Assembly: GCA_029717555.1 (NCBI GenBank)
Contig: JAMDHS010000002.1
Span: 310,001 to 374,000 of the forward strand
Source of the DNA: Peribolospora baueri
Lineage: Eukaryota
Length of the DNA: 64,000 nt
Reading direction: 5' to 3'
Program-made: the position numbers and the translations under genes
Notes under the pieces: generated by a model
Told to the model about the DNA's origin: nothing
Seen by the model: the letters and a program-made list of their open reading frames with translations, nothing else
Database searches by the model: none
Part shown: one piece after another, positions 156 through 32,718 of the stretch
How positions within the stretch are numbered: the stretch's first letter is position 1
How the letters are laid out: every line of letters starts with the position of its first letter

Positions 156-1618
156 TCAGTAGAACCCATGCCTAGCGTACCCTCTCCCTCCGCCGCCCTG
201 CCCTCCACCAATCAGAGGCATCCTCGGACCGGCACCGGCGGGCGACATCAATGGGCCATTAGGTCCCCACCCTTCGAGAGGAGGAGCGGGAGAAGCAGCC
301 GACGCCGCGGGCTGGCCGCCTCCCCTGGCCAGTTCGTACGTCGTGCCCTCGGCGGTGCCAAAGGCGTTTTGCCGTGCTGGACGGGGTGCGTAAACGGGCG
401 AGCTGCCGCCGCCGCCGCCGCCGCCACCATAGCCGCCCATGTCGGCTCCGTATCCACCACCACCGCCGCCGTTGGCAGCGTACGAATACGGCGGCTGATG
501 GTGCATCGGCGGATGTCCGGTCTGCACACTGCTCGAGCCGCCGTAGGCCATGTCTCGTGGAGACGAGGCGTCGAGAGGGGAAAGCGAAGGGTCGGCGGCG
601 CGGACGGTGCCGCGGCGGGAGGTGCCGACGGGCGCGTTGGGTGTGCCGTACAGGCTTCGGCGCTTGGACATGGTCGAGGCGGAGTTGGGGTGGTTGTGGT
701 TGTGGGGCGGGTGGGGGACGAGCGTGGTGGTGCTGTTGGCGGCCAAGGTGGCCGTGCTCGCCCCGTTGAGGGACGTCGTGCTTTCGCCGGTGCTCGACGG
801 ACCAGGGCGCATGTCTCCGCCGTCGTGGCCGCCAGGAGAGTGATGAGGCCGGTGGGGATATACGTTTGCGTATCCGTTAGGGGGGTATTGAGAAGAGCTG
901 GCGCCGGCGCGCCTGTCGGGCGGCGAGGATGAAGAGTAGTCATGAGGGCCCAAGAGCTGCCTCTTGCTGCCCATGGCGGGGGAGGCGGGAGGAGTAGCTT
1001 GCTGAAATGGCACCCAAGCGGCTGTGGCGGAGCCGTCGACGCCCCGAGGGGGCGGCGGCCTGAGCTTATTGTCGAGACGGTCCATGGGGAGCGCTTCGGT
1101 GCTCGGAAAGGGGCTTCCCGTGCCGCCGACGCGTTGGGCGGGGTATGATGGCTGATGCCTGCGCGAGGGCGCGGCGCCTGGCTTGGGCAAGGAGCGGTTG
1201 GAGAAGAGGATGCTGCAGAGGATAAGAACGATGAGGATGGCTATGATAACGATGAGGACCATGTCGAAGGTGAAGAAGTACGAGGTGGAGAAGGAAGTGG
1301 CGCTGAAGGCGAAAGAAGGTTGGGAGGGGGGCAAAGGGGCGGGCAGACGTCAGCGGCAATGTGAGAGCGCGAGACAGCCCCATCTGGCCTGGCCACTCAC
1401 ATGCTGCCGGGGCCGATGGACGGCCTGGCGGACGCACTTGCGCTATGCTTCTTGGTGTGGGACGAGGTGGTTTGGGAGGATGCGCGAGCGACCAGAGTCC
1501 GTGTGGCCTCGTGGGAGGCGTCGGTGAGCATCCTGACGACGGCGGCGCGCGTTGTGGAGGAAGGCGCCGTGGCGGTGGCCGACGTGGAAGGAGAGAAGGC
1601 GGCGAGGGAAGCAGGCAT
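156..1618 (-). CDS. Hypothetical single-pass membrane protein with Pro/Gly/Ser-rich cytoplasmic tail (2 exons)
   Basis: ATG at 1618 (MPASLAAF...). A GTGAGT donor at 1400, CTGAC branch and CAG acceptor at 1303-1305 join in frame to ORF 156..1334. One hydrophobic stretch MVLIVIIAILIVLILCSILF. Confidence 0.65.
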
Positions 1619-3359
1619 GGGCGGGGCGTGCTGGCCATAAGGGAAACTTGGTGGGCGACGGACGGTGTGAAAGGCGGCTGGGGCATTCATGATTACGGAG
1701 ACGTGGCGGTCAAGGAGCGTGGGTGAAGGGAATGTCGGTCGCGCAGCGACAGCGAAAGCAGGCAAGGGTCCCGGTGGAGTGGACGAGGCAAAAGGAGTGG
1801 GAGCGAAGAAGGAGCGGAAAGCAGGCGGAGGCGAGGGACGGGCCAAGCTGGCTAGGATATCTTTTGGAAGGGGGAGGGGTGACGGTGACGGTGGTGCGAG
1901 GAGCGGGGTGCTGATCAGCACACGCGCACGGCCTGGCTGGCTGTCGGCGTTGGCGTTGGCGACGGTGTCAGCGTCGGTGTATGGGAGCTTAGTGAGGGAG
2001 GGATGGAGGAAGAAAGATAGACGATGAGAGTCGATGACGACGACGACGACGACGACGAGCGGCTGTTGGCGCGACGGGAAGACCGCGCGCAGCACGCAGC
2101 GCCCAAGGCGACTGAATCGAGTCGGCGACTTGACGTCGACTTTGGACCGTCTAACTAATTCCTTTAATATTAACGGCGGCCCTCGCTTCCACCTCCATTC
2201 CATTCCATTCCAGCCAGCCAGCCAGCCACGACGCGCCACGTTCCGAGAGGGGGCAGGGCAGGGCAAAGAGGGGGAGTGGGAGGAGGCAACAAACAGGAAA
2301 CGGGGGGACGAGAATCAAAGCAGAATGAGTGCTGGCTACGTTCTGCCTCGCTCGACGCTCCCGTTGCAAGATGGAGAAGAGAAGCAGGTACAGTACTCGC
2401 TCCCCGACGCTAATCGTCACTGCCCACGATCATCTCGTCCTGGCATATCATAGGCTATGCGTTAAAACAAAGACGACGACGGGCAAGCGCGTGCCCCGGG
2501 CGGGAAGCGAGGGAGCGCCAAGGCCAAGGGAAAGGAAGGGAAGAGGGAGCAAGCAAGTCTTCTTCGCGTAGTCTCTGAGGTTCCTGCTTCCATTCTAGGT
2601 CTTTATGAACCCAGAAGGGAAGCGGACAAGGGAAGACGACGACGGACGGCGAGCCGGTGGGTAAATAACTCGAGAGGGTGCAGCGCAGCGTCTACGTGGA
2701 CGACCCGCTGCCGCCAACGTCTCCCTTCTCGTTTCCTGAGCAAGAAAGAGATCATATCATGTACAGAGAATGTCATGAGCGAGCTAGGTCCCAAGCTGGA
2801 TGGAAATCAGCATTGAATCCATATGCCTCCTTCGGGCAAAGGAGTTGCTTGGGACAAGGAGAGTGGCATGTTCCTTCATGCACCCCCATGGATGGGCCCC
2901 GGGTGGTCATCTATCTCCCCTTCCATCTACCCTCCTGTCCAGAGATAGAGACACGCACGCACGTACTTGAAAAACGATCGTCGCTGCCGTCGAGGGAAGC
3001 AAAACGCAAAACGCTATCCCGGTCTTCGCTTGGCGCCTCGGGGAGGACAGGAGAGGACGATCGAGACACCACCCCCAACCAACGCCGACGATCCTTTTCT
3101 TTCTATCTTGCCTTTTTCACCCCTTGTCTCCTCTCGTCTCCTCCCTCTCCACTCCCCTCCGCTCCCTTCTCCGCCGTGCCGTCGGTCGTCGTCGTCGTCG
3201 TCCATCGCTCCTGCTGGCCGCCCATCCTCCCCTCCCCGTCCCGCGATCGAATTTGGAAATCGACCCGCCCCGCGGTCGGCGGACAACCAGCGACGATCGT
3301 CGGCCTCGCGTTCCTCGTCCCAGACCTTGACCCTGACTGACTTGCAACCAACGCCATCC

Positions 3360-3388
3360 GACTCGGACTCGGACTCGGACTCGGACTC
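3360..3388. repeat. (GACTCG)n hexanucleotide microsatellite
   Basis: gactcggactcggactcggactcggactc read directly. Confidence 0.85.
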
Positions 3389-3577
3389 ATCGCCTCCCTG
3401 CTACCACCACTCCTTCGCTATCACCATCCCGCGACACCTCCCCGCCCCCCACCTTCTCTTCGTCCGCCTTCACTCTTTACCAACACCCCCGCGCGCGGAC
3501 GCCGTAGCTGTCTGTTCAAGCCCAGCAGACCAAAAGCCCAAGCCCAAGCCCAAGGGAGGCCCACGCACGCACGCGCC

Positions 3578-4367
3578 ATGACCGTCTCGTCCGTCCGATT
3601 CCGAGGCACACCCCCCGTCGTCGTCCGGCTGGCCGGACGGGCGTTGGACGAGCTTTTGGTGCCGAGGGACACGGACACGAAGGAGGCCGATAAGTGAGTC
3701 CCCTCGTTTTGCCATGCCGTCTCGTTTCGCCATCGTCTTAGACAGTACACGCGCTTTCGCATGTCGGACGGCTGACCTAACGGACCATCGCACTTTTCTT
3801 TGGCACGCACACACCTCGCAGTAAGAAAAGCCAAGCGGAGCACACCAAAAAGGTGACCATCATCGGCATCGTTGGTGAGTGAAAGCCCGCTTCCCATACC
3901 CTGCCCCGCCCACTCCTGACCTCCTTCCTCCCATTTCAACGTCGTTCCCTCTCTCCAACGCCCCACCAGTCGGCTGCATCGCCGCCGCCCTCATCCTCCT
4001 CGCCCTCTTCCTCTACTTCCAACGCCGTCGAGGCGAGCGTCAAGCCCGTCGACGCAGGCTCGCCGCCGGCTTTGCCACGGCCCAAGAGGAGCTCGCGTAC
4101 CAGCAGGCCAGGGAGGAGGCCGAGGGCGATGCCGAGCTGCCTTGGTTGCGCGCCAACAGGAGTCGCAGCGTCGCCGCTTTCCCGTCTGCTTCGGACAGCG
4201 GGTTCGTCGGCAACGGAGGAGACCATCCTGGCACCGGTACTGGTCCCCGTGCGCCGACCATTAGATCGGACTGGGAGAGCGGCAGGCAGGCATGGAACGA
4301 GGAGGGTAGGCCGCCGCCGGACTATCGCTCCGCCGCTCTTGGAAGGCCTGCACCCGGCCCGATCTAG
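3578..4367 (+). CDS. Single-pass membrane protein with C-terminal PPxY motif (paralog A)
   Basis: Exons 3578-3693, 3822-3874 and 3970-4367 with GT-AG introns splice in frame: MTVSS...LVPRDTDTKEADNKKSQAEHTKKVTIIGIVVGCIAAALILLALFLYFQRRR...LPWLRANRS...PPPDYRSAALGRP. Confidence 0.75.
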
Positions 4368-5055
4368 CCTAGCCTAGTCTTCTTAAGACGGGCTCCTTTC
4401 CGGCGTGTGCAAAAGCTTCGGCGTACGACTTCGCCGCGCCCGTGCACCTGATGCTATATGCCTGCCGCCGGTGGTGACGCCGCTCTTCCATCCCTCACCA
4501 TATCCTCCATTCGTTCCTCAGGACTCATCCGGCTTGTCACCGTCACCGTCACCGTCGCCGTCGCCGTCAAACTTTGCTTTCCTTCCCTCGCCTTCCACTC
4601 TCATTTCCCAACACCGGACCTTGGCTTCTTCCTTCCTTCCTTCCTCCTTCTCGCTTTCGCTTCGCTGGGCAGGCAGTGCCGCTCGATCGACGCTTGACCA
4701 TCACCCCCACCGACTACCAACCACCGACCACTTACACTTACTTGTACCACGTGCATCTTGTACCCTTACCCACTCCGCTCCGCTCCCTTGCCGTCTCAAT
4801 TCTCAATCTCACTCTGACTCTGGTCCTGTTTCCCTGTCACTGTCGCCGGATTCCAAGCGACGGTATCAGGGCAAATGCATCGCGCCCAGTAGAGGGCAGA
4901 GACGAGAGAAGAGGAGCGAAAAGGGGCGCCATAGAGGCTGCTGCGGAGGGAGGGAGAACTGCTGACGGAGGAGGTGGCCGCGGGTCGGTCATGGCGAGCG
5001 GAGCGGGTCGCAACGCAAGGGATCGTCATTTCGAGCACACTACACTGTTGCACCA

Positions 5056-5080
5056 GTTGCGTTGCGTTGCGTTGCGTTGC
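5056..5080. repeat. (GTTGC)5 microsatellite
   Basis: Five perfect copies, intergenic. Confidence 0.9.
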
Positions 5081-5842
5081 CGGTTTGCGGTTCGGTGCGA
5101 AATCCGTATTCCGTATGCTGGCATGCGGGCATACAGGCACTTCTTTCCTTCGTCCGGTCAGTTACGTCTCCTAATATCTTTACCGGTAACGGATGTAAGG
5201 GGTGGACGTGTACGTGTACGTTCGTTTACACAAGCGCGGGCTAGGGCGGTGGTTGTCCTTTTTTTTTTTTCGGGCTGCGCGGACGATGGTGATGGCGGGG
5301 GCGAAGGGCGTGATGGTGATGGTGGTGGAGGACGAGGGCGCGACTGCGAGGGAGGGGGACGAGAAGGGGGGAGGTGATCCCGTGTGCGTGTGGGCGATGG
5401 CGGGGCGAAACCCAAATCGAGTCTTCCTTCCTTGTAGGACCGCTCGTTCGGCACTGCCGACGGCGAGAACGGCGAAAGCGCGCTTTCGAGCTAACATTTA
5501 TCATACCGGCATATATGTAGATGGATGGCACGGAGTAGATAAAAGAGCAGAGAAGAGCGCGTCCGGTTAGGAACTACAGTACAGCGGCCACTCGGGCAGA
5601 GAGCATATTCGGCGGACGAAGCGGCGGCGAGGTCAGAACCCCAACTCGGGCCGGCTCCCAAGTCGCCGCCGCTGCTGCCATGGGTGGGAAGCGTCAGCGC
5701 GTCGGCCAGCTCGCTCGTCCTCCTCCGATGGTGGAGGCTGTCGCGCTTGGCCGCCGCGGAGGGGAGGGCGCCGTCCAAAGTCGAAGAACGGAAGGAGAGG
5801 AGGGAGAAGGAGGAGAAGAGAGAATCTCTCGGGGAGGAGAGC

Positions 5843-6753
5843 TCATAGGCACGGGGAAAGGTGGAGTAGGGCGGGCTGGCCGTGTCCGTCGCGCTGTGAC
5901 GGGAATGGGACCGCGGTGGGGAGCAATGCGAAGGTGAGTGAGATAGCTGGGTCGGCGGGCAAAAAGGGAGGCGGCCGGTCGTCGTCGTCGTCGAGCGACA
6001 ATCGGTCCCAGGAAGGCCAGCGCGGCGTGCTCTCGTCACCGTGAAGCGACGGACTGGCAGAGAAGAGGACGACAGGCCTGCCGAGGGCGGCCATCTCGTA
6101 CGTCGGCGGAGGTACGCCTCGGTCGTTGAACGCCTCCCGGCCGCTCTCGGCATCCGAACAGACGCTCGTCCTGCGCACCCGTCCGCCTCGCTCGGGACGG
6201 TCGACGAGCGAGCGAAGCATGTCGTCCATGGTTTCCACGTTTCCAGAACGGTTGGGCCGGAGCCAGGGCAAGTCCTCGTCGCCCATCTCGTCGTCCCAGT
6301 GACAATGTCCGTCGCCTCCGGAGGCTGCTGCCAGCTTGGCCTTGCGCTCTTCTGACCGGCGCTGGGAATAGAGGGCCACGACGACGACGAGGGCGGCGAA
6401 GATGACGCCAACGACGATGGCGAGGATCATGACGTAGCGATGGCTCGGAGGACCGCGGTCTCTGACGCGATTGAGGGCGGCCGAGAAAAAAAAAAGACGA
6501 GGAAGAATGGCGAGAGTGGAGGCAAAGTTAGCCAGACCGGTCGCGGGATCGACGCAGAGCTCGGGTCAACCAGCTGGACAGCTGATCCATCGTCAGCATG
6601 GCCCTGCCAACGGCGGCTCCACATCCCCTCTACGCAACCTCCCTCCTCTCTCCATTCGATCGACAAAGAGGTAAAAACTCACGCGTCCTTACCCAATTCA
6701 TGGACGCCGTCCCTTGCGGCCAATGATGTCGGCTGTGACAGCGGAAGCGGCAT
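5843..6753 (-). CDS. Single-pass membrane protein with PPxY motif (paralog B)
   Basis: ORF 5843..6430 (MILAIVVGVIFAALVVVVALYSQRR...LPWLRPNRS...PPPTYEMAALGRP) extends to a CAG acceptor at 6462-6464 with CTAAC branch and pyrimidine tract. A GTGAGT donor at 6682 links in phase to exon 6683-6753 (MPLPLSQPTSLAARDGVHELGKD). The first exon is less certain than the main exon. Confidence 0.7.
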
Positions 6754-8158
6754 CCACATCCGCCGCCTCCTCCTCCTCGCTACCACTCGTCCGATCCCCA
6801 GCAGCGCCTCCATGCGCAGACCCTCTCCTCCCCTCCGCCCCCCGCCCGCGCGCGTCTCCATCGGTAAACTCTGCCTCCTCGCCGACGAGCCATCCCTCCT
6901 TCCACTCCGCCCTGCACGACGGGCACGTTCCGTGCGTTGACAAGTAGCGCGAGGCGCAATGGTCGTGTAGTCGGCAGGAGCATCGAGGTGTCTTGCAGGC
7001 GACGCCCTGGGGGCAGGTACGTTGGGGTGCGAAGGAACAAGGTGCAAACAACCACGTCAGACGGTCGTCCAATCCTGTCATCGTCGCTGCCATCCGATGC
7101 CACGCCGCCGGGACGCACCTTGGTCAAGATGTCCATGCAGAGCGTGCACTCGAGCACGTTGTCCTCGTATTCGCTCTTGAGGTACGATTGGAGCTCGAGG
7201 ATGGCGCGGGAGGACAGCGAGTAGAAGCCTCGGCTGGTGGGACGGAGGAGAGGAGCGCGTCAGGGATTCGCGAACCGGGAAGCAGAGGGTCAAAGGGCGT
7301 ATGGAGGCTATCACTCCACTCACCGGCTCTTGATCAACCACCTCCTCCTGACCAAGCTGGTGAGAAGCGCCTCGGCGGAGGCCTTGGTCATCGGCGGGGT
7401 GAGACGGGAGGACTGGCTGAGGATGGAGATAGCGGAAGCAGAGAAGGCTTCGTTTGGGGCGGTCATGATGAGCTCGATCTAATGAGGTGGGACGAGGAAA
7501 CGAATAGGATACGAGTTCAGTCGTCCATGGGCAGGTGCACGACCGTGTATGAGGTGAAGAGAAGAGAGACGTACGATCTTCTTCACCATGGCGAGCTCTT
7601 GCGGGGAGTATTCCGAGGCCACTTGGGCGATCTCGTCGCCTTTTGTGTTTACCTGTCGGAGTTCGAGCGGACGACGTGGGAAGTGGGGAAGGGCAGATGA
7701 GAAGGGTGAGAGACTCGCTGAATTCAGTTCGTTCGTTCATCGTCGCCCCACACGCGGTGACGAAAACCTAACTCAAGTGCGCCGCGCCTCCGGCACACTC
7801 ACGAGAGCGAGAACGGGAAAACCATGAACCTGGTCTACGAAACGACGGATCTCGAAGCCGAGAGGAGAGATGGAGCGGTTGACGGTGTCGAGGAAGGAAG
7901 GGAAGGCGGTCGGTGTGTAGGGCGCTGCGTCGGAGGGATTCGGGGAAGAGGGGGGAGAAGACGGCGGCTCGTTGGTGTTCGTCTTCGTGACCCCATCCAT
8001 CCATCGATCCCATGGCCTCGGCTGGGCGCCGGTCGGGAGGGCTCACCGTCACAGAGCTTGCAAGCCCTCTCGTGCAGCGCTTTGGCGTGCTTCTCGGCGA
8101 GAGAGCGATGCGTGAAGACGGCTTGGAGCCAGAGCTTGCGGGCCGTGCTTTCGCTCAT
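6698..8158 (-). CDS. NSE1: Smc5/6 complex non-SMC element 1 (winged-helix + RING-like)
   Basis: N-terminus RKLWLQAVFTHRSL. C-terminal RING variant spread over exons: LECTLCMDILTK / GVACKTPRCSCRLHDHCASRY...CPSC...W. Confidence 0.85.
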
Positions 8159-8925
8159 CCTATCCGATCCGGTCCTAATAAGATGAAGGGGAGGATCGTA
8201 TGGGAGGAGCGGGGATCGAGGACGCGGGTGCGCGTTGATGAAGGTGCGCGCTGATCAAGTGTACACGAGTATGCGATTATGCGAGTACGCGGGTACAGGC
8301 GTCGTCGTATAGCAGGCGCACCTGGATGCGACCGCGGAGGAGAACGCCGACTGCGGCTGCTGCGGCTGGTCGCAGGAGACGTAAGGCGTTGTATGCTGTA
8401 TGTTGTATGTTGTACGTACATGGGGCGACTAATGAGTGTTAGGTACGGTATACGGACACGCGCGCACGTACACGCAGGTCTTGGCCTGGCCAGTGAGAGA
8501 GAGCGTGGAGGCGGCGGCGCTGGTCTGGATGCCTTCAGTCTCTCCGTCACGCTTCCATCCATCTCGTCGTCCATCCATCACCCGCTTAGCGGACGACCAC
8601 CACGACGACCACGCCGACCGCATCCACATCCACTTCTTTCAATTCCTCCACTTCCCCTTTCGCTTTTCTTCTCTCTGCTCCCCCTCGTCCGTCGTTGCCG
8701 CTCGCTCGCTCCCCCTCGCGGCTGGCCTCGCAGTGCGACCCGTCGGCAAGAAAACCAGGCCAAGGCCCCCCCGCGCGTTTCCCACCGGCGTCACCACCCC
8801 TCGAGATCGCCAGTCACGACAACGTGGTGGAGCAAGAAGACCAAAAGCCCCCGGCGTCCGCGTCGACGACGAGCGTAGCGCACGCGAGGGGCGGCCGTCG
8901 GCGCATCATCCCCTAGCCGAGGAGG

Positions 8926-11900
8926 ATGCAACCTGTCGACGAGGGGCCGGAGCGCCGCCAACACCACCACCGACGGCTCAGCTCACGCAAGGAGAACCCC
9001 CAAGGTCGGCCTCCGCTCGACGAGCCGCCACAGCCGTCGTCGTCGTCGTCGTCGCTGCCCACGTCGGCCGCGGAACGTCGCCGCGACGCAGACCACCACC
9101 ACCAACGCCAAGATCAACAGCAGGGGCAGGAGCAAGACCAAGACTTAGGTCGAGAGCAACCATCGCATCGTCACCTCGGCCTCCGTACTCGCTCAAAGCC
9201 CGAGAACCCCGTCACACCCAACACCTCCACCTCCGACCTCTCCTCCGTCGCCTTCGAGAACTCCCCCCCCCCTCCTAAGCGCGCCTCTGTGGCCGTCTAC
9301 CACCAGCACCCCCGAGACATCGCCATCGCCGCCCGCGTCAGGTCCAACGGCGCCCTCTCTACCGTCGCCTCATCGGCATCCGGACCGCATGCCTCCGTCG
9401 TCGAGCCCTCTTCCCCCTCCGCCGGCTCGACGTCCACTCGTCATCCCAAGTCTCCATCTCTGCCTCCCATCGATCCAGACATTCACACACCCCTCTTCGA
9501 CGAGGCCCTCGACCCCTCCTTCACCTTCCCTCAATCTCCCGTCGATCCCAGCCCGCCCGCGTCCGCCTCCAGCCCGTCGGCCAGGTCCGGTCAGGCCAGA
9601 GCCTCGGTCGCCTTCGACGACACCGCCGCGGACGACAAGACCGTCCGCATGGTCGACCCCCAACCCCCCTCTCCCCAATCCCGACGACGTGCACCCTCGC
9701 TCCATATCTCCCTCCAGGCTCCCGTTCTGACGTCCCGCTTCTCCGCCTTCTCCTCCGTCAATCCCTCCCCCACCTCTGACCTCCCGCCTTCCTCCTCGTC
9801 TTCGAACAGCCAAGAGCGTGACGCGCTCGTCGCTTCCACCAGACCACCCCATCGCTCCACCCTTTCCGGCATGCGGGCCTCCGCCGCACGGGATGGAGAC
9901 GGCGCGTGCGCCGCGCGCTCCATCGCCGGTCTTGGCCTCGGCTTGCCCTCGTCCCTCTCCGCCCCCGCCGTGGCGCAGGTGTCTCTGGAGGAGCAAATGG
10001 CTCGAGGTCGAGAAGACGATGTCGATGCCACCGACGATGCGCCGAACAGGGAGGATGCGTCGCCAATATCCCCGTCCCGCGGAGTGTCTACAACGCCAGA
10101 CCCGCCCCCCTTTTCCTACGACCGCTCGCGTCAGATCGGGCTCGGACAGCTGGCGACGCCCCGTTGGCACTTTTCCATGTCTGACCATCCGTGGCCCGCA
10201 AGCGCTTCTAGGTCGGCAGCGCCACGGACGTCGGTGGACCAGCAGCCCTACTACGCGACGACCCACAGCGGGCCACCCTCCGCTTCGCTCGCCACCCTCG
10301 ATGGCGCGTCGTCCCGCCAGGCCGAGGCTTACAGGCATGGACGCTCCATCTCCTTCTCCGCCTCGCCCGCCCAACCCGTCGGCGGCGGCGCCGCCGGTCG
10401 CCCCCGCCAGGCGAGCGTGGCAGGTCCTGGCGCCATTGGAGCCATCGTCTCGGCGGGCGCAGACATGCCGCCCTTGCCCGTCTCCACCGGTATCGCGGCC
10501 TCGACCAGTCTGTCGGCCGTCTCTGCGCTCTCCTCTCTCGCCCGCGGATTCCACTCGTCTGATACCGGCTATGACCTCATGTCCGAACTGCACGAGTACG
10601 CCTCCGGCACGAGGGACCTCCTCTCCTCCCCCACCTACTCCATCCAGGCGCTTTCCGTGTCCGACTCAGAGTCCATGACCATTGAGCCAGAGAGCCATCC
10701 TCCTTCGGCAAAGACGGACACCTTCCCCGGTCACCAAAGCAACGGGGCAGGCGAGCGTGCCGCTGCTATCGCCGCGGAAGGAGTTCGGTCGGGTACCGGC
10801 AGCACGTTCCAGACGGCGGACGAAGGCAGCAGCAGCACCGCGACGCACGGCTTGCACTCCGCTTTTGGCGTCGGCGTCCCGCGAGCCACTGAGCCGGTCC
10901 ATCTCGCCGGCCTCGGCCTCGATACCTTGGACCACCGATCTCAGCCGCCTTCTTCGTATCGCGGCGATCCTTTCGGCCGTGGCGACGCCATCAGCAGGTC
11001 GTCGTCGAACATGTCTTCCAGGAGTGAGAGGACGAACTCGAGGAAGAGGTCGGGCGACGATTTCGCTGCCGCCGTCGCTGCTCCGGACCAGACTTCCACT
11101 TCTGCTACCGTAGCCCAGCAGCCGTCGCCGTCGCACGAGTCGTCCGTTTTCAGGACGAGCTTTGACCTTAGTGCGGCCATCGCTGAGCTCTCCAAGGGCG
11201 ACGGAAGCGGGAGCGAAGTCGGCTCGCCGAGCTTGGCGAAGCGCCGCCAACCTTCGCCTTCCAAGGTTAGCCGGCGTGCTTCGCTCGGGCACAGCAAACG
11301 CACGAGCATGTCTGGCCCGACGCGTCACAACACCGCGACCGGCCACGGCCGGTCACCGTCTTCGTCGTCCGTTTCCGCGTTCGCTTCCAAGACGGCCGGC
11401 GACCTGCTGAGCTCGAGGAGCGAGCCGCCCGACTCACCCGCCCGGAGCCCGCTTTCGCTTGACAAGTCGCCCAACGCTGCCGCCAATCGCCGCTCGCGTG
11501 CGCTGTACCCTACGCCGCCTCACACGGCCAGCGGCATGCCCGCTTCTACCACCACCGCCGGCGCCGGTCCGCAGTCGCAGTCTTCGCAGCGTCAAGCTTC
11601 TCGCTCGTCGGCCGCGTCCACCCACTCGTCCTCGCGTAGGCGTGTGTCTACCGCCAGCATAGGCGCATCCATCCTCCGAGGCTCGCTACCCTTCGGCGTT
11701 AGCGGCGAGTTCGAAGGCCTCTTTCTCGACGGCGCCGACATTTCTGGCGAGGGAGACGCGGCTGAAGCGTTGCGCAAGTTGGACGGTCTCGGTTCGAAGC
11801 CCAGCCCGAGGACCAGCAGGGACGGCTCTGGCGGTCGACCCGGAAGCAGCGGTAGGCCTGGAAGCAGCGCCGGAGCGTCTTCGAGGAAGCCTGGCAGCGC

Positions 11901-25987: not shown

Positions 25988-27079
25988 TATTGCTCTCCCT
26001 TTCTTGCATTGGAACGTCGATAGGCTGCCCGCGCCATAGGGCATGCTCGGAACCAACCTTGGCATTCGAATGCAAGACCTGCACGCCTCGATCGAGGTTC
26101 ACCTTGGCGAGGTGAAAGAGCGGTCTGCACATGCATTTCTTGTCCATTTAGTGCCTGCATACATACAGTCAGTCCGAATGTCCACAGGACGCAGAAGGCG
26201 AATGTTTGAGGGCAGGAGAGGTGTTGAACTGACGTGAAGGAGAGATGTCGACGGGCGGTGGGAGCAAGAGCACAACAATGCTCACGCACACTTACGTCAG
26301 TCACGTGATGAAGACTACCGGGTATACGGATTTACTTGTGGGAATGTCTCGTCCTCCTCCTTCTATGCATACATACGTGCCATGGTCAAGGACGGTTCAT
26401 CAACTCGACTCAAGGCTGCCTTCGACAGGCGGCCAACACCATCAATTCGTCCTGGCCTGCCCGGACGGTAATCGAGCACGTCACATAAGCAAACGGTTCG
26501 TACAAACGTGCAGTGCTTGATTTCACTGTGCCGTAAGTATGTACATCCGGTCCACGCGCTCGGTTCGACATTCATGCCCGCTCTCTCCGCTAATAAAAGA
26601 CGGCTCGACTCGATCGACTCGATCGACTCAGTCCGACTCATTCCGTACCTTTCCCTTCTTGTCCGAGAGCCCTATGACATCCCCATTCGAGCGACAGTGG
26701 CTGAGCACTTAGGCTCTATGGCGTCTCTCTTCCGCCGGCTGTGGCGGTGTCCGTCGGTCGGTCGGCCACCGACAGCGAGTCATCCTCTTCATCCGCTCGC
26801 ATCCGTCCGTCCCTGCACGAAGGAACTCCAAGAATGAAGGAATTCCAGGACACATTGGGGCTATAAAGCATGCTTCTCCTTGCACCTCTTCTCTGCCTTT
26901 CTCTTTCTCTTCATCCTGCTGGCGTTCCCTCTCATACCTCTCGCTGCCACTCTTCGTCCCCACGCTCGTCAAGTTACATTCCTATACCCTAAGCGCAGCG
27001 GTGCAAAGCATCGCCAACGGCAGCCACCATATCTAAAGCCCAGCACCTTGCGCGGTCTCCCATCTTAACTCTGCTCAAG

Positions 27080-29375
27080 ATGCCCAACGAGAGCGACCAA
27101 GCCGCCCCCAGCTTCGCTTCGGCGCCGACCGTGAACGCTTCTTCTAACGCGGGCGCAGGCGCCAGCCCCGACCCCTCCGCCACCGCCGTCGCTCAGTCCC
27201 CTCCAATGGACACAGAAGCGCGCGTTCGTGACCTCCTTACCCGCAAGCTCCTCCCTCTCCTCCGCATCCTCGGGCTCCAAAGCGTGCCCTTCGCCGACGA
27301 CGTCCTCCGCGTCCTCTTTGTCGGTGGTCTCTTGGCCGTTGGTCGAGACTTTATAGGCAGGGTGTGGGAGTGGTTCAAAAGGCGGTTCGTCATCACCGCC
27401 GTCTTTCAGAGCGGACATGAGACTCACGACTGGGTCAGTAACTGGCTGGCTGGCTTGGAGGGAACTAGGAGGGCCAAAGATGTGAGTAGAGTGGACGATG
27501 TGGAGAGTCGCCTTTTAGACTGGCCTCCACCGGTCGGTGTGAAACGCGTTCAGGAAGACGCGATTCGAGGGCATCGCATCCTCAAAGAGGCGTTTCTAGC
27601 TGACCCTCTGAAACGGTCGGCACGCACAACGTTCCATTTGACTAGTTCATCGTTCTCAGCCACACACAACAAGAAGACGAACAGATCGGAGCTGGGTACG
27701 ACATTCCCCTCAAGACCTTGCCCGCGAACGGTTAGCCGTCATTTTCCCTTATTTTCGCGCACGACCATGCCGAACGCGTCGTGTTTGACTTGGGTTTCTG
27801 CCAAACGCTCCAATCAGATACCACCAACTACTTTTCTTACCGGCCCACCTCGGTCCGTCGCCGACGAAAGCGTGGATTCGGCATTACACTCCCCGGCCGC
27901 CGCCTTGTCTGGTTCAGCAGCCACCGTGACAGAGAGCTATTGGCCGGGCAAGAGGGGTCGCACACCTTCCTCCATCTCAACATGCTAACCTTCTGGAGGA
28001 GAGACCTAGAAGACTTGATCATTGAGGCCAGGGCCGACTGGGTCGGTCGCGAGGTTGGCATGACTGGTATTTACATGCCTGGTGCGTTTTTTTTTGTGGA
28101 GGGGAAGAGCGAAGGAAAGCGGAAGAGTGGAGGACGGCGATAAGCCTTCCCGCGGGTTTCTTCCCCCACCACTAGCCTAACCTTACACTCGCTTCTCTTC
28201 TTGCCGCCGCAGACGACTATTCGTGGCGACGCGTAGCGCTGCGACCCAAGAGACCTCTTTCGACCGTCGTTCTGGATGAAGGACAGGCCGAGATGTTGGT
28301 GACGGACGCACGAAGCTGTGAGTCCATCTAGTCGAACTCTTACTCGGCGGCGACTCGTGACACACTGAACGTCGACGAGGGATATTGGCACGAGGAAGCG
28401 CGGGCTGACCTCTGGACTTCTTTTCTTTTCGCCCCTTCGCCAGTCCTCCAAAACGAAGCCTGGTACGCTTCGCGCGGGATCCCCTTCCGCCGAGGCTACC
28501 TCCTCCACGGTCCTCCCGGCGCAGGCAAGACTTCTCTCATCATCGCCCTGGCCGGTGTGCTCAACTTGCCAATCTACATCTTCTCGCTCACCCATCACGG
28601 TGTCACTGATCAATTGCTCCTGTACCTCTCCTCGCGGTGTCCGGAGACTTGCATCCTGCTCATCGAGGACATCGACGCGGCGTTCGCCGGGAGGAAGAAC
28701 ATTGTTGGCGGGCTGGGAGATGAGAAGGAGGGAGGAGGAAGGGAAAATGAGAAGGAGAAGGAGAAGGAAAAGGGGAAGGAGGCTGGGAAGGGCGGAGACG
28801 AGAACCGGGTCTCGTTCTCCGGCCTGCTCAACTTGATCGATGGCGCCGGCGCACCCGAAGGTCGACTGCTCTTCGCGACGACGAATCACATCGAGCGACT
28901 CGATCCGGCGCTCATCCGCCCGGGGCGGATCGACATTAAGGTCCAGTTTGATCGTGCGAGCAAGACGCAGGTGGAGAAGTTGTTCGTCCGGCTGTATACG
29001 CACAGAGCCGAGGAGGACTCGGCGAAGAGGACGGGTGCGGGTGCGGGCGCGTCGGCAGCCGAGAGACGCGCCGACGTCTCATCATCTCGTCCTTCTCTTC
29101 TGTTATCCGACGACTCTGAGCTGGACGAGCCGCGCCCACCGACGCCGGACGATGAGGAGGACGAGAAGCGTCAACGGGAGGCGGAGGAGATGTACGAGAA
29201 ACGGATCCGGAAGATGGCCAAGGAATTCGCCACGCACGTCCCGGAGAGGAAGTTTTCGATGGCCACGTTGCAGGGCTTCTTCATGAAGAGGAAGGAGACG
29301 CCTGAGGAGGCTCTGAGGGACGTAAGGGCGTGGGTGGAAAGGGATGGCCACGATGACTGGGTGGGTCAACTATGA
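27080..29375 (+). CDS. BCS1-family mitochondrial AAA ATPase
   Basis: RPKRPLSTVVLD, WYASRGIPFRRGYLLHGPPGAGKTS, LIEDIDAAF, SFSGLLNLIDG, TTNHIERLDPALIRPGRID. N-terminal hydrophobic segment. Confidence 0.9.
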
Positions 29376-29601
29376 TGGCCGGCCTTCAGACAACGGAGGA
29401 GGAGCGGCCGATAGAGATGGATACCGGACCCTAGAGCATGAGCACTGGTGGCGCATCGTAAGCTATAGTGTATTAATTTGGAGCATCCATTCTGGAATAG
29501 CATTCGTCCCATTGCGCACGAGGCAGGAATGGAGATAATGCCGCGCCGTCGTCTCTGGCAAGGGAAGGGAAGGAAAAGGGGGGGGGCGAGGACTGCCGCA
29601 A

Positions 29602-29739
29602 TGTCATGAATTAACTCGAGGATGAAGTGCTATTCATAAAGCTTTATTAAAATACGGATATGATCAATTTACAATAGAAATTCTAGAGGAAGTAGATGGA
29701 ACTAGTTTATCTACTTTAGAATTACATAATTTATTAGTT
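29602..29739 (+). pseudogene. Fragment of mitochondrial GIY-YIG homing endonuclease ORF
   Basis: Reads CHELTRG(TGA)SAIHKALLKYGYDQFTIEILEEVD..., matching the 'SxIYKALLKYGYxNFxLEILE' helix-strand of fungal mitochondrial intron GIY-YIG enzymes. Confidence 0.8.
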
Positions 29740-29769
29740 GGTATGTGAGTTCGACTCTCACCTATTTCA
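29740..29769 (+). pseudogene. 3' half of a mitochondrial tRNA (T-arm plus acceptor strand)
   Basis: GTGAG-TTCGACT-CTCAC forms a perfect 5-bp T stem with TTCGA loop (29745-29761), followed by CTATTTC-A. No 5' half is present. Confidence 0.7.
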
Positions 29770-29821
29770 TTATTGAATAATAATTAATGATTAATATACT
29801 CAGCGGTTCACATAGTAATGA

Positions 29822-29854
29822 CTGTAGCCATCATTAAAATAAAAATTACAACTC
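29822..29854 (-). pseudogene. cob: Cytochrome b fragment
   Basis: Minus strand GA GTT GTA ATT TTT ATT TTA ATG ATG GCT ACA G = (G)VVIFILMMAT(A), the helix C motif of fungal cytochrome b. Confidence 0.75.
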
Positions 29855-29954
29855 GATCTACACTATTATTTGGTAGCAATTATTATATCTGATAAGATGC
29901 TAACGCTTAAGTGTAGCACCTTGTAAGTATAGAATCAGTGCTGAAAACAAAAAG
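29855..29954 (+). pseudogene. rns: Mitochondrial small-subunit rRNA fragment (central domain)
   Basis: GCTAACGCTTAAGTGTAGCACCTTGTAAGTA...GCTGAAAACAAAAAG resembles bacterial 16S GCTAACGCGTTAAGT...CCTGGGGAGTAC...AAAACTCAAA. CTACACT (29858-64) pairs with AGTGTAG (29910-16) as in helix 25. Confidence 0.65.
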
Positions 29955-30017
29955 ACTGTATTATTGAAGGGAATGTTGTGTTGTTTACAGCTAGAAGCAT
30001 TATTTCAATACTAATTT

Positions 30018-30074
30018 TTCATGACTATTATTGAAAGAAAAGTAATGGGAGCTATGCAACGTGGAGTTGGACCT
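30018..30074 (+). pseudogene. nad1: NADH dehydrogenase subunit 1 N-terminal fragment
   Basis: FMTIIERKVMGAMQRGVGP versus the ND1 signature ERKxxGxMQRRxGP, with AT-biased codons. Confidence 0.88.
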
Positions 30075-30108
30075 TATCTATCGCTCGCCCACCGCCCAGC
30101 GTACGCTA

Positions 30109-30749
30109 CAGTCAACCCTGTCTATAAGCATAAGGGTTGTATAGCCCGGGTGCTATGCAGTATGCGGGAGGTTGACTACCCAGAGGGGCCTATGCATATT
30201 TGCCGCAGCCGTTGCCACAGTCGATAGCGAGACATGAATTCCAAGCTTTACTATAGAGTATGTACACGTCATAACACAACCATGTTCAAGAAGAAGTGTG
30301 TGCAGAAAAGAATTGTCGCTCGTTGACATGTTCTTTGAAAGAGATGGTGAAACGGGGACAAGCACCCACGTCTACATGGTAATGTTAGAACTGACGGTGG
30401 ATGGACGAAAGTGTATGTTACTGGTTCGTTATTGTTAAGAGAGCATACAAAGAGGAAAACCGCAGTAACACCTTTGCCTACACAGTCATGTCCGCTTTCA
30501 GCCGCGTAACCACGGTGCTCGTCGCCGCCAATCTCCAACAGCACGAGGATGCACGTGACCCTCAACCCTAACTGGTAAGGACGGCACCGGTGTCAGTGCT
30601 ATGCAATATGCGGGTATGTCAGTATGCATATAGACCAGTGTTTTGGCTGGGATTAGTTAATTTTTGGCTGGGGAGCAAACGGGAAAGGGAGATCGCTATG
30701 CACTATGCGAAGGCCTATGGACCCGTATGCTAACAGACAGGGTTGACTG
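30109..30749. mobile_element. Non-autonomous Tc1/mariner(pogo)-type DNA transposon (MITE), 641 bp
   Basis: Left TIR CAGTCAACCCTGTCTATAAGCATAAGGGT (30109-30137) and right TIR (30721-30749) match at 26/29. TA flanks both ends (30107-08, 30750-51). No transposase ORF. Confidence 0.88.
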
Positions 30750-31779
30750 TACCTACCTCGCTATCTACCTTCCTACCCGCCAGCGGGACATAATACATAC
30801 ACGGACGAGCAAGGATCGTCATAGACCGTCCCAAGGGTCGGGGGCACGTTGCAGCCGGAGATCGTGTCCGCCGGAAGGACGGGCAGCTCGGACGCGGATC
30901 CCGGCGAGGGTTCTCGTTTGCTCGTCCGCTCGTTTGCTCGACCCGCTCGCTCGCACCAAGTCCAAAGGCGCACGTTCGAGCTGAGGCAGCGGTGAGGGTG
31001 AGGGTGTCGTCGGCGGTGGACGGAGGGAAGGATGGATCCGACTTGGAGGTGGAGCTGGCCGCGGCGACGCTGTTGGTAGGGAGGGATTTGCATCCCCGAA
31101 GGATCCGCACCGACGATCAGCTTGAGCAGCACCATCGAAGTGGAGCCGTTCCTCCGTCGGTCACCATCGAACCCTCCTCCGCTCCTCCATCCATCCGCCA
31201 GCCGCTGAGCCATATGATAGCGAGATGGATCAGCAGCGCACATGCTATGCTATGCATCCTCCTTCCACCAGCCATCGCCCCTTTCGTCCCTCCCTTCGCC
31301 CTCCACCACCGCTCCCACTCCCGGCGCCCGCTCCGTTGCCCCTCCCCTTCTCCGATTTGTCCGACGTGTGTGTAGCAGAACGTACTCATGCGTCCCAAAA
31401 TGGACGACGTCGCGGGGATCACCTCCTATCCCACCTCCCCGACCCTGACCTCCGCCGGGTGGGCTCGTCAGGCTCCGGCCTGCTAGCTAGCTTGCGCCCG
31501 GGCCGTCCACATGAGCATGACCAGAACAGAACAGCTACAGGAAGGAGCTCACGAGCCAATCTGCCTAGTCCCATCCCAGCCGCCCTCGAGCTCATCCCCC
31601 CTCCACCACCTCCTCGGCCGCGAGCTCGCTCCGTAGGCTATGAAAGAGAGGGCCTCGCTCCCGGCTCCTCCAAGACAAGCTCCTTCTCTCACCTCACCTC
31701 CCGTCCTCTCCTATCCACTACCCTTCTCCTCCCCCACTCCCTCCCCTCTCCCCTCTCACTCCATCCCTTCTCCACAGCC

Positions 31780-32718
<939 letters not shown>

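Follow-up and report, generated by a model that had tools for sequence, protein, structure and literature searches.

The window, which is the whole stretch of 64 kb that was analysed, covers positions 310001-374000 of C220, a 572-kb contig (GC 0.59) in a short-read assembly of 22.7 Mb and 668 contigs. The window has spliced genes, and the mitochondrial gene set together with the neighbouring genes marks a fungus. The AT-richest stretch within it is an island of 475 bp (29600-30074) with a GC content of 0.30 as against 0.585 for the window as a whole, and the best composition change points are located at 29600 and about 30046. As an initial annotation had stated, the island begins 225 bp downstream of the stop codon of a BCS1-like open reading frame (stop at 29375), whose AAA and AAA_lid_BCS1 domains were confirmed; a BCS1_N domain is found upstream, within 26993-27985 (Pfam). 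Neither this gene nor the ribonuclease-like gene on the right is interrupted by the island, and the insert is intergenic. The features of the locus are as follows.

28332-29375, plus strand: last coding stretch of the BCS1-like AAA ATPase, the left neighbour (open reading frame; Pfam AAA, E 7e-17; AAA_lid_BCS1, E 6e-16)
29600-29734, plus strand: piece 1, part of an ORF for a GIY-YIG endonuclease of a group I intron (29608-29725 against C20:22528-22645, 70% nucleotide identity, E 1e-9)
29735-29809, plus strand: piece 2, 3' half of tRNA-Met(CAT) with about 40 nt of downstream mitochondrial spacer (87% to C102:2174-2251, E 1e-21)
29810-29821, no strand: 12 bases without assignment, which may be filler, spacer that has diverged, or a seventh scrap
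29822-29854, minus strand: piece 3, 33 nt of cob (91% to C20:48040-48008, E 5e-7; Pfam Cytochrome_B)
29854-29955, plus strand: piece 4, about 100 nt of rns, the mitochondrial SSU rRNA (29856-29955 against C20:43428-43527, 98%, E 5e-45; inside an SSU rRNA match)
29957-30016, minus strand: piece 5, nad4L exon and intron start (92% to C216:120-61; Pfam Oxidored_q2)
30017-30074, plus strand: piece 6, 58 nt of nad1 (98% to C20:39423-39480; Pfam NADHdh)
30075-30106, no strand: nuclear spacer of 32 nt between insert and MITE (no mitochondrial match longer than 10 nt; full-length MITE copies match from about 30107)
30107-30751, no strand: MITE of about 640 bp, TA-flanked, with 31-nt inverted ends, TA included (inverted arms 90% complementary)
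32007-32438, plus strand: exon of the right-hand neighbour, a gene for a small secreted ribonuclease-like protein (weak match, Pfam Ribonuclease, E 0.006, under the cut-off)

The donors were assigned by BLAST of the island against the assembly's own mitochondrial contigs. The mitochondrial reference consists of C68, C20 and C102 (19.6, 54.0 and 7.0 kb; GC about 0.27-0.35), which share overlaps of 127 nt and contain rns, rnl, tRNAs and respiratory genes. The island is composed of six mitochondrial pieces from dispersed donors, four in plus and two in minus orientation, in the order GIY-YIG ORF (+), tRNA-Met 3' half with its flank (+), cob (-), rns (+), nad4L exon-intron boundary (-) and nad1 (+). 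Their donors are non-collinear, namely C20 at 22.5k (+), C102 at 2.2k (+), and C20 at 48.0k (-), 43.4k (+), 29.8k/C216 (-) and 39.4k (+). The patchwork of at least five non-contiguous mitochondrial fragments in mixed orientation that had been proposed from the sequence is borne out, and collinearity with a single mtDNA locus, tested as its refutation, was not found. The GIY-YIG, cob, rns, nad1 and tRNA pieces had also been named rightly, as backed by TIGR01453, Pfam, SSU rRNA and tRNA searches, whereas the two segments that had been called unassigned could be resolved in part: the first is the downstream flank of the tRNA up to 29809 followed by the 12 unexplained bases, and the second is minus-strand nad4L with the start of an intron. 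Five of the pieces are 87-98% identical to C20, C102 or C216, and the GIY-YIG piece is 70% identical to a paralogue.

The ends of piece 1 (29600-29607 and 29726-29734) are assigned through frame continuity only. Its match to TIGR01453 (E 4.9e-5, NCBIfam) is below the curated cut-off, as is expected because it involves just 31 residues, and Pfam gave no match to the 43-residue piece. The differences from the C20 paralogue are mostly in the third codon position (16/35), and the best amino-acid identity in the assembly is 55%. A closer GIY-YIG donor was not found by a genome protein search, by tblastn of 25 mitochondrial or mitochondria-like loci, or among the contigs of the four sequencing runs described below, which prove presence rather than absence and held none at 85% or more. 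In all four runs 29644-29730 was found at nuclear depth only, with contigs placed at 85% likeness. The frame of piece 1 is interrupted by a TGA at 29623-29625. A tRNA search identified the mitochondrial tRNA-Trp on C20 with the anticodon CCA, and the listed core mitochondrial genes have zero in-frame TGA. Because of these two observations, the mitochondrion of Peribolospora baueri may not read TGA as Trp, and the TGA in piece 1 is probably a lesion.

Piece 2 begins just past the anticodon of tRNA-Met, the donor tRNA being located at C102:2135-2209. For the 12 bases that follow, a search of 96.6 kb of mitochondrial and mitochondria-like loci gave no match longer than 12 nt; one of 12 nt in C68 was rejected as their source, its context being unrelated. 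Rfam returned just three chance matches on the island (E 1.4-5.9) and ARAGORN nothing meaningful, as would be anticipated with truncated pieces. The limits of the cob piece, 29822 and 29854, coincide with the positions at which contigs of mitochondrial depth depart from the window. The rns piece reaches 29854 when compared with the C154 NUMT and with X3/X4 mitochondrial-depth contigs (X1-X4 being the four runs). The exon part of piece 5 (29985-30016) is 100% identical to C20:29833-29802, and its remaining 28 nt form the beginning of an insertion that is missing from the main mitochondrial contig. C216 and C20 diverge right after the shared nad4L exon, and C216 encodes a LAGLIDADG_1 domain (Pfam, E 3e-10); the insertion in the C216 form is probably a group I intron with a LAGLIDADG ORF. 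On sequence grounds, the donor was DNA and not spliced RNA, because an exon-intron boundary and a tRNA spacer are included. A retroposed, cDNA-derived organellar copy is ruled out by the same exon-intron boundary and tRNA downstream spacer.

Three of the five inner joints are readable, with overlaps of 0, 1 and 2-4 nt. The nad4L/nad1 joint is blunt, and the cob/rns joint has a 1-nt overlap if the donor rns had the base of the C154 NUMT and of X3/X4 mtDNA. At the rns/nad4L-intron joint the overlap is strictly 2 nt, or 4 nt when a single subsequent change is assumed at 29956; both donors agree over the four bases 29954-29957 and the window deviates at 29956, which suggests a 4-nt microhomology with a later mutation at that position. 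The GIY/tRNA joint is outside the readable set as its true donor is absent, and so is the tRNA/cob joint, which contains the 12 unassigned bases. The readable joints (3/5) support an end-joining type, in line with the end-joining repair proposed at the outset.

Independent support for the assembled structure was sought in the contigs of four public runs of one study, with two labelled organisms (X1/X2 and X3/X4), placed at 85% likeness. A joint was counted as bridged when passed by 31 bases, within 32 of 600 records. At nuclear depth, an X1 record (28784-29771) and an X2 record (28600-29681) show zero differences from the window, as does a further X2 record at 29913-30006 with a depth of 131; the records of X3 (28600-29875) and X4 (28600-29883) show 21 and 23 differences, respectively. 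Bridging records have depths of 76-131 vs 1,800-4,300 for mitochondrial contigs, which match the island piecewise and then depart from the window where each piece stops. Records of nuclear depth bridge the left flank and the joints GIY/tRNA, tRNA/cob and rns/nad4L; the cob/rns joint is passed by 20 and 28 bases, under the 31-base rule. The contention that the island is not a misassembly holds for the left flank and three inner joints, whereas the right-hand joints 30016/30017 and 30074/30075 have no bridging record among the 32 of 600. The assembly may have been built from X1 or X2. Because X3 and X4 differ from it, their records count as separate support for the left half of the insert. Within the bin 29557-29643, near the left joint of the insert, X3 and X4 are without 26 bases relative to the window.

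The insert is common to both labelled organisms, and it is older than the split of the two lineages, since it is present in both. All four runs carry it, and neither an empty nor a partly filled allele was found among them. The lineages carrying the insert diverge by about 2%; X3 has at least 17 differing sites from the window in 28600-29599, the BCS1 region, and at least 4 in 29600-29875. At 29789, 29797 and 29849 the X3/X4 nuclear copy has the mitochondrial base and the window differs; these changes therefore arose in the nucleus, after the lineage split. Compared with the best donors, five pieces show 21 differences in all, and the conserved parts 7/253. The insert had been described as recent on account of its unameliorated composition. 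This is not supported, for the insert is found in two lineages about 2% apart, is decayed, and has a GIY-YIG piece whose donor the mtDNA no longer contains. At such depth a low GC content does not serve as a clock, and no GC-ward drift was seen in the insert (AT>GC 7 vs GC>AT 6). Only over a long time scale can the insert be called recent.

The insert was derived from an earlier form of the mtDNA, which still had the GIY-YIG ORF and the nad4L intron. Loose contig ends indicate that X3/X4 mtDNA has the intron form of nad4L and X1/X2 the intronless form: the loose end of X3 at 29957 runs on into C216 sequence, and X1/X2 have the intronless C20 form at 29985. The best explanation is that the mtDNA of this strain has since lost both the nad4L intron and the GIY-YIG ORF, so that the insert is a small molecular fossil. 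Two forms of nad4L are also seen within the assembly, an intronless one on C20 and one with a LAGLIDADG-bearing insertion on the 902-bp C216. The mitochondrial genes recur as variants on many tiny AT-rich contigs (C216, C160, C236, C387 and others), which look like a second mitotype, perhaps present through heteroplasmy or library carry-over.

The genome was further searched for NUMTs with nine stretches covering C20, C68 and C102, and the loci were then re-mapped. The resulting census is a lower bound, each search having scored the best candidates only. There are at least 73 mtDNA-like loci, of which at least 51 have nuclear-type flanks on both sides; the other 22 were left out for being on tiny or mitochondrial contigs or at contig ends, or because one flank had a GC below 0.42 or was not retrieved. 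The 51 include sets of copies that go back to a single event (C104/C113/C117, C241/C656 and two in C110). Mosaics of two or more non-collinear pieces make up 8/51 loci, and those of three or more pieces 5/51; hence, the mosaic of the window is not unique in the genome. It is the richest among the 51 loci, with six pieces, followed by C416, C110:166460 and C645 with four each. Together the eight mosaics contain 29 pieces with lengths of 30-210 bp (median 58), and where joints are flush the overlap is mostly 0-3 nt.

Further mosaics of three or four pieces are located at C416:101561-101815, C110:166460-167086, C645:77527-78275, C15:58599-58741 and C317:484-632, and in the C416 mosaic 2/4 pieces fit the second mitotype at 98%. 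C154:214371-215124 is a 754-bp single-piece rns NUMT (97%); it retains a base common to the window insert and X3/X4 mtDNA, where the main mtDNA of the strain differs. A 278-bp rnl-like piece of about 80% identity is present in at least seven contigs (C104, C113, C117, C332, C318, C131 and C57), and in C104/C113/C117, which have long flanks, it adjoins a tandem array of about 135 bp. The matches in these three contigs were considered as nuclear rDNA and this was rejected, as Rfam found no rRNA there; they were kept in the count. The recurring piece is possibly an old NUMT amplified within a repeat.

The element to the right of the insert, on which the initial annotation was silent, is short and in many copies, with terminal inverted repeats and TA on both sides, as in MITEs of the Tc1/mariner type; from its ends, we take it to be Tc1/mariner-pogo-like. 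Its family has at least 63 matches (best 40 of 70 candidates scored) in at least some forty places, with TA outside the left end in 22/26 and outside the right end in 22/22. Its read depth is 1,000-9,000 vs 70-140. An autonomous DDE-transposase partner was not found at three loci with split or partial copies or in one internal ORF scanned (C208). The latter belongs to a 3.1-kb copy of the MITE (C208:133704-136805) with a long interior and an apparent inverted duplication; the ORF encodes an OrsD domain (Pfam, E 1e-11) and has no transposase match. Another copy, C494:46085-46939, holds a mosaic mtDNA insert of about 165 bp, the ninth mosaic. It comprises a LAGLIDADG-coding piece (Pfam, E 0.007), in part matched by C276 of the second mitotype, a 67-nt stretch with full identity to C20:3704-3770, and a short AT-rich tail without assignment.

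Taken together, the island is very probably a complex (mosaic) NUMT. It has homology to the organism's own mtDNA and lies on a nuclear contig at nuclear depth (left flank and three inner joints); its donors are non-adjacent and in mixed orientation, and its readable inner joints are within the range of blunt ends to 1-7 bp. The same appearance could in principle come from an assembly chimera of high-depth mitochondrial and nuclear reads, as the assembly is a short-read one in 668 contigs and the right-hand joints have no bridging record. However, every mapped piece differs from the mtDNA, the left half was recovered at nuclear depth in separately assembled contigs of four runs, two of them from a diverged lineage with its own variants, and the overlap of 127 nt between mitochondrial contigs implies a word length that roughly equals or exceeds the length of every piece; a chimera is therefore extremely improbable. 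A break-prone site that took up mtDNA serially, in at least two events with the GIY-YIG piece first, is a more realistic, though still quite unlikely, alternative. The GIY-YIG piece is just 70% identical to the present mtDNA, is at the edge and has a stop, with rns and nad1 at 98%, and the identity spread of 70% to 100% could mean insertions of unequal age. Yet its third-position bias reads as divergence of mitochondrial paralogues and not as nuclear decay, the inner joints are flush with no nuclear DNA separating the pieces, and concatenation before or during integration is the consensus in the available text of the reviews (PMC6215612, PMC2820518). The pieces may also be thought to come from the mitochondria of the other parent, destroyed after mating, such that mosaics record mitotypes the lineage never inherited. 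Among 12 nuclear stretches with a second-mitotype match (the C617 row, a mitochondrial junction contig, being left out), 3 match only there, 4 fit it clearly better (the nad4L piece of the window, C416, C110:166460 and C186), 1 is a tie and 4 are mixed or of the main type; the cob piece differs from both mitotypes at identical sites. Nevertheless, the comparison is biased, for second-type contigs exist only where the types differ, and as the insert predates the lineage split, later intron loss in the strain's own mtDNA suffices without extra assumptions. This origin is accordingly held to be very unlikely.

The proximity of the MITE raises the cause of the break itself, which could have been an abortive transposase cut, a hairpin or insertion damage at the MITE, patched by mtDNA. 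The MITE begins 32 bp from the insert, the ages are of the same order (nearest MITE copy 24/618 sites; conserved insert parts as given above), the C494 copy of the same family has its mosaic mtDNA inside, and a MITE fragment is about 440 bp from a third NUMT. Still, neither the window insert (32 bp outside) nor that of C494 (about 65 bp inside) is at the inverted-repeat end, where the transposase cuts, and the TA and the end of the window MITE are intact. With the discovery locus left out, 1/50 loci is inside or within 100 bp of a MITE vs 0.08-0.13 expected (P 0.08-0.12), and 2/50 are within 1.5 kb vs 0.33-0.52 expected (P 0.04-0.10); an assumed threefold intergenic correction gives P 0.22-0.46. 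This test assumes a copy number of 40-63 besides the threefold factor, and over the 50 loci enrichment of NUMTs near the MITE family is not significant. The co-location is explained by a shared tolerance of intergenic sites, as is argued for another fungus in the accessible part of one report (10.64898/2026.10.20.760510), and a MITE-caused break is unlikely. Both ideas can be combined, in that mosaics would archive mitotypes absent from the strain, the shredded mtDNA of the losing parent filling breaks near an active MITE family; this we regard as no less improbable than the parental origin. A non-exhaustive literature search at the level of titles and abstracts found no claim joining discarded-parent mitotypes, NUMTs and MITE breaks. 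If true, it would provide an archive of discarded mitotypes and lost homing introns (the nad4L intron and the GIY-YIG ORF) and would link uniparental mitochondrial inheritance to nuclear insertions.

For the mosaic NUMT of the window, the following course is proposed. The mtDNA would have been released and cut into pieces of about 30-135 bp; several of these would have been linked to one another by their ends, with order and orientation left to chance, and the resulting chain would have been inserted by ligation at a chromosome break in the intergenic region downstream of the BCS1-like gene. The trigger was presumably a double-strand break and the whole probably one event, with non-homologous or microhomology-assisted end joining as the likely pathway. 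The insert appears to be without function.

Natural NUMTs of yeast were reportedly described by Ricchetti in 1999 and by Sacerdot in 2008. The class of mosaic NUMTs is already known and has been made experimentally in yeast. In the available sections of a study on Saccharomyces cerevisiae, complex insertions, built from two to four fragments, made up nearly 4,000 of the roughly 33,000 at an induced break, and the NUMTs (22-492 bp) were dependent on Lig4 and Pol4, with the nuclease Nuc1 involved (PMC11372161). These HO-break NUMTs of stationary-phase cells are, like the window insert, short, made of several mtDNA fragments and marked by end-joining signatures; the pieces measure 33-135 bp in the window. 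However, the yeast cases have fewer fragments, follow an induced break and have their genetics shown, whereas the window insert has six, is natural and fixed in two lineages, and its pathway is deduced (PMC11372161, as excerpted). Likewise, complex numts and nupts are described, in the text available, as having non-contiguous pieces in differing orientations, blunt or 1-7 bp microhomology joints, and the nature of a 'molecular fossil' of older mtDNA, all as in the window insert, although those data are from plants and primates and the present insert is fungal with very small pieces (PMC6215612, PMC2820518).

Among fungi, NUMTs are found in almost all yeasts (PMC5499181), and in Pichia sorbitophila they are clustered, with 24 in 15 clusters (PMC3284337). 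As far as the accessible text of both papers goes, these resemble the present genome in that dozens of small NUMTs occur per compact fungal genome, partly clustered; they are from ascomycete yeasts, and the likeness is drawn without fragment order within the clusters. The AGO1 NUMT of Cryptococcus neoformans, ascribed to one ancestral event, is also fungal and has 2-4 bp microhomologies as in the window insert; unlike the latter, a decayed six-piece intergenic mosaic with no sign of an effect, it is a single fragment, 100% identical to mtDNA, and disrupts a gene with a phenotype (10.64898/2026.09.15.751489, in the portion available). In Anisogramma, NUMTs are reported from transposon-rich regions, according to the excerpt available (10.64898/2026.10.20.760510). 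A survey of mosaic NUMTs in basidiomycete yeasts was not found in the literature covered, which excludes most subscription journals.

The insert clearly illustrates how a known repair product looks in nature; it has six pieces vs two to four in the excerpted yeast experiment (PMC11372161), and nothing indicates an effect on a gene. Its significance would grow if NUMTs derived from a discarded parental mitotype or clustered at transposon breaks, neither of which is established by the evidence here. Inserts of this kind can mislead mitochondrial marker or assembly work. As a record, the insert documents an mtDNA that, before the two lineages parted, still contained a nad4L intron and a GIY-YIG ORF.
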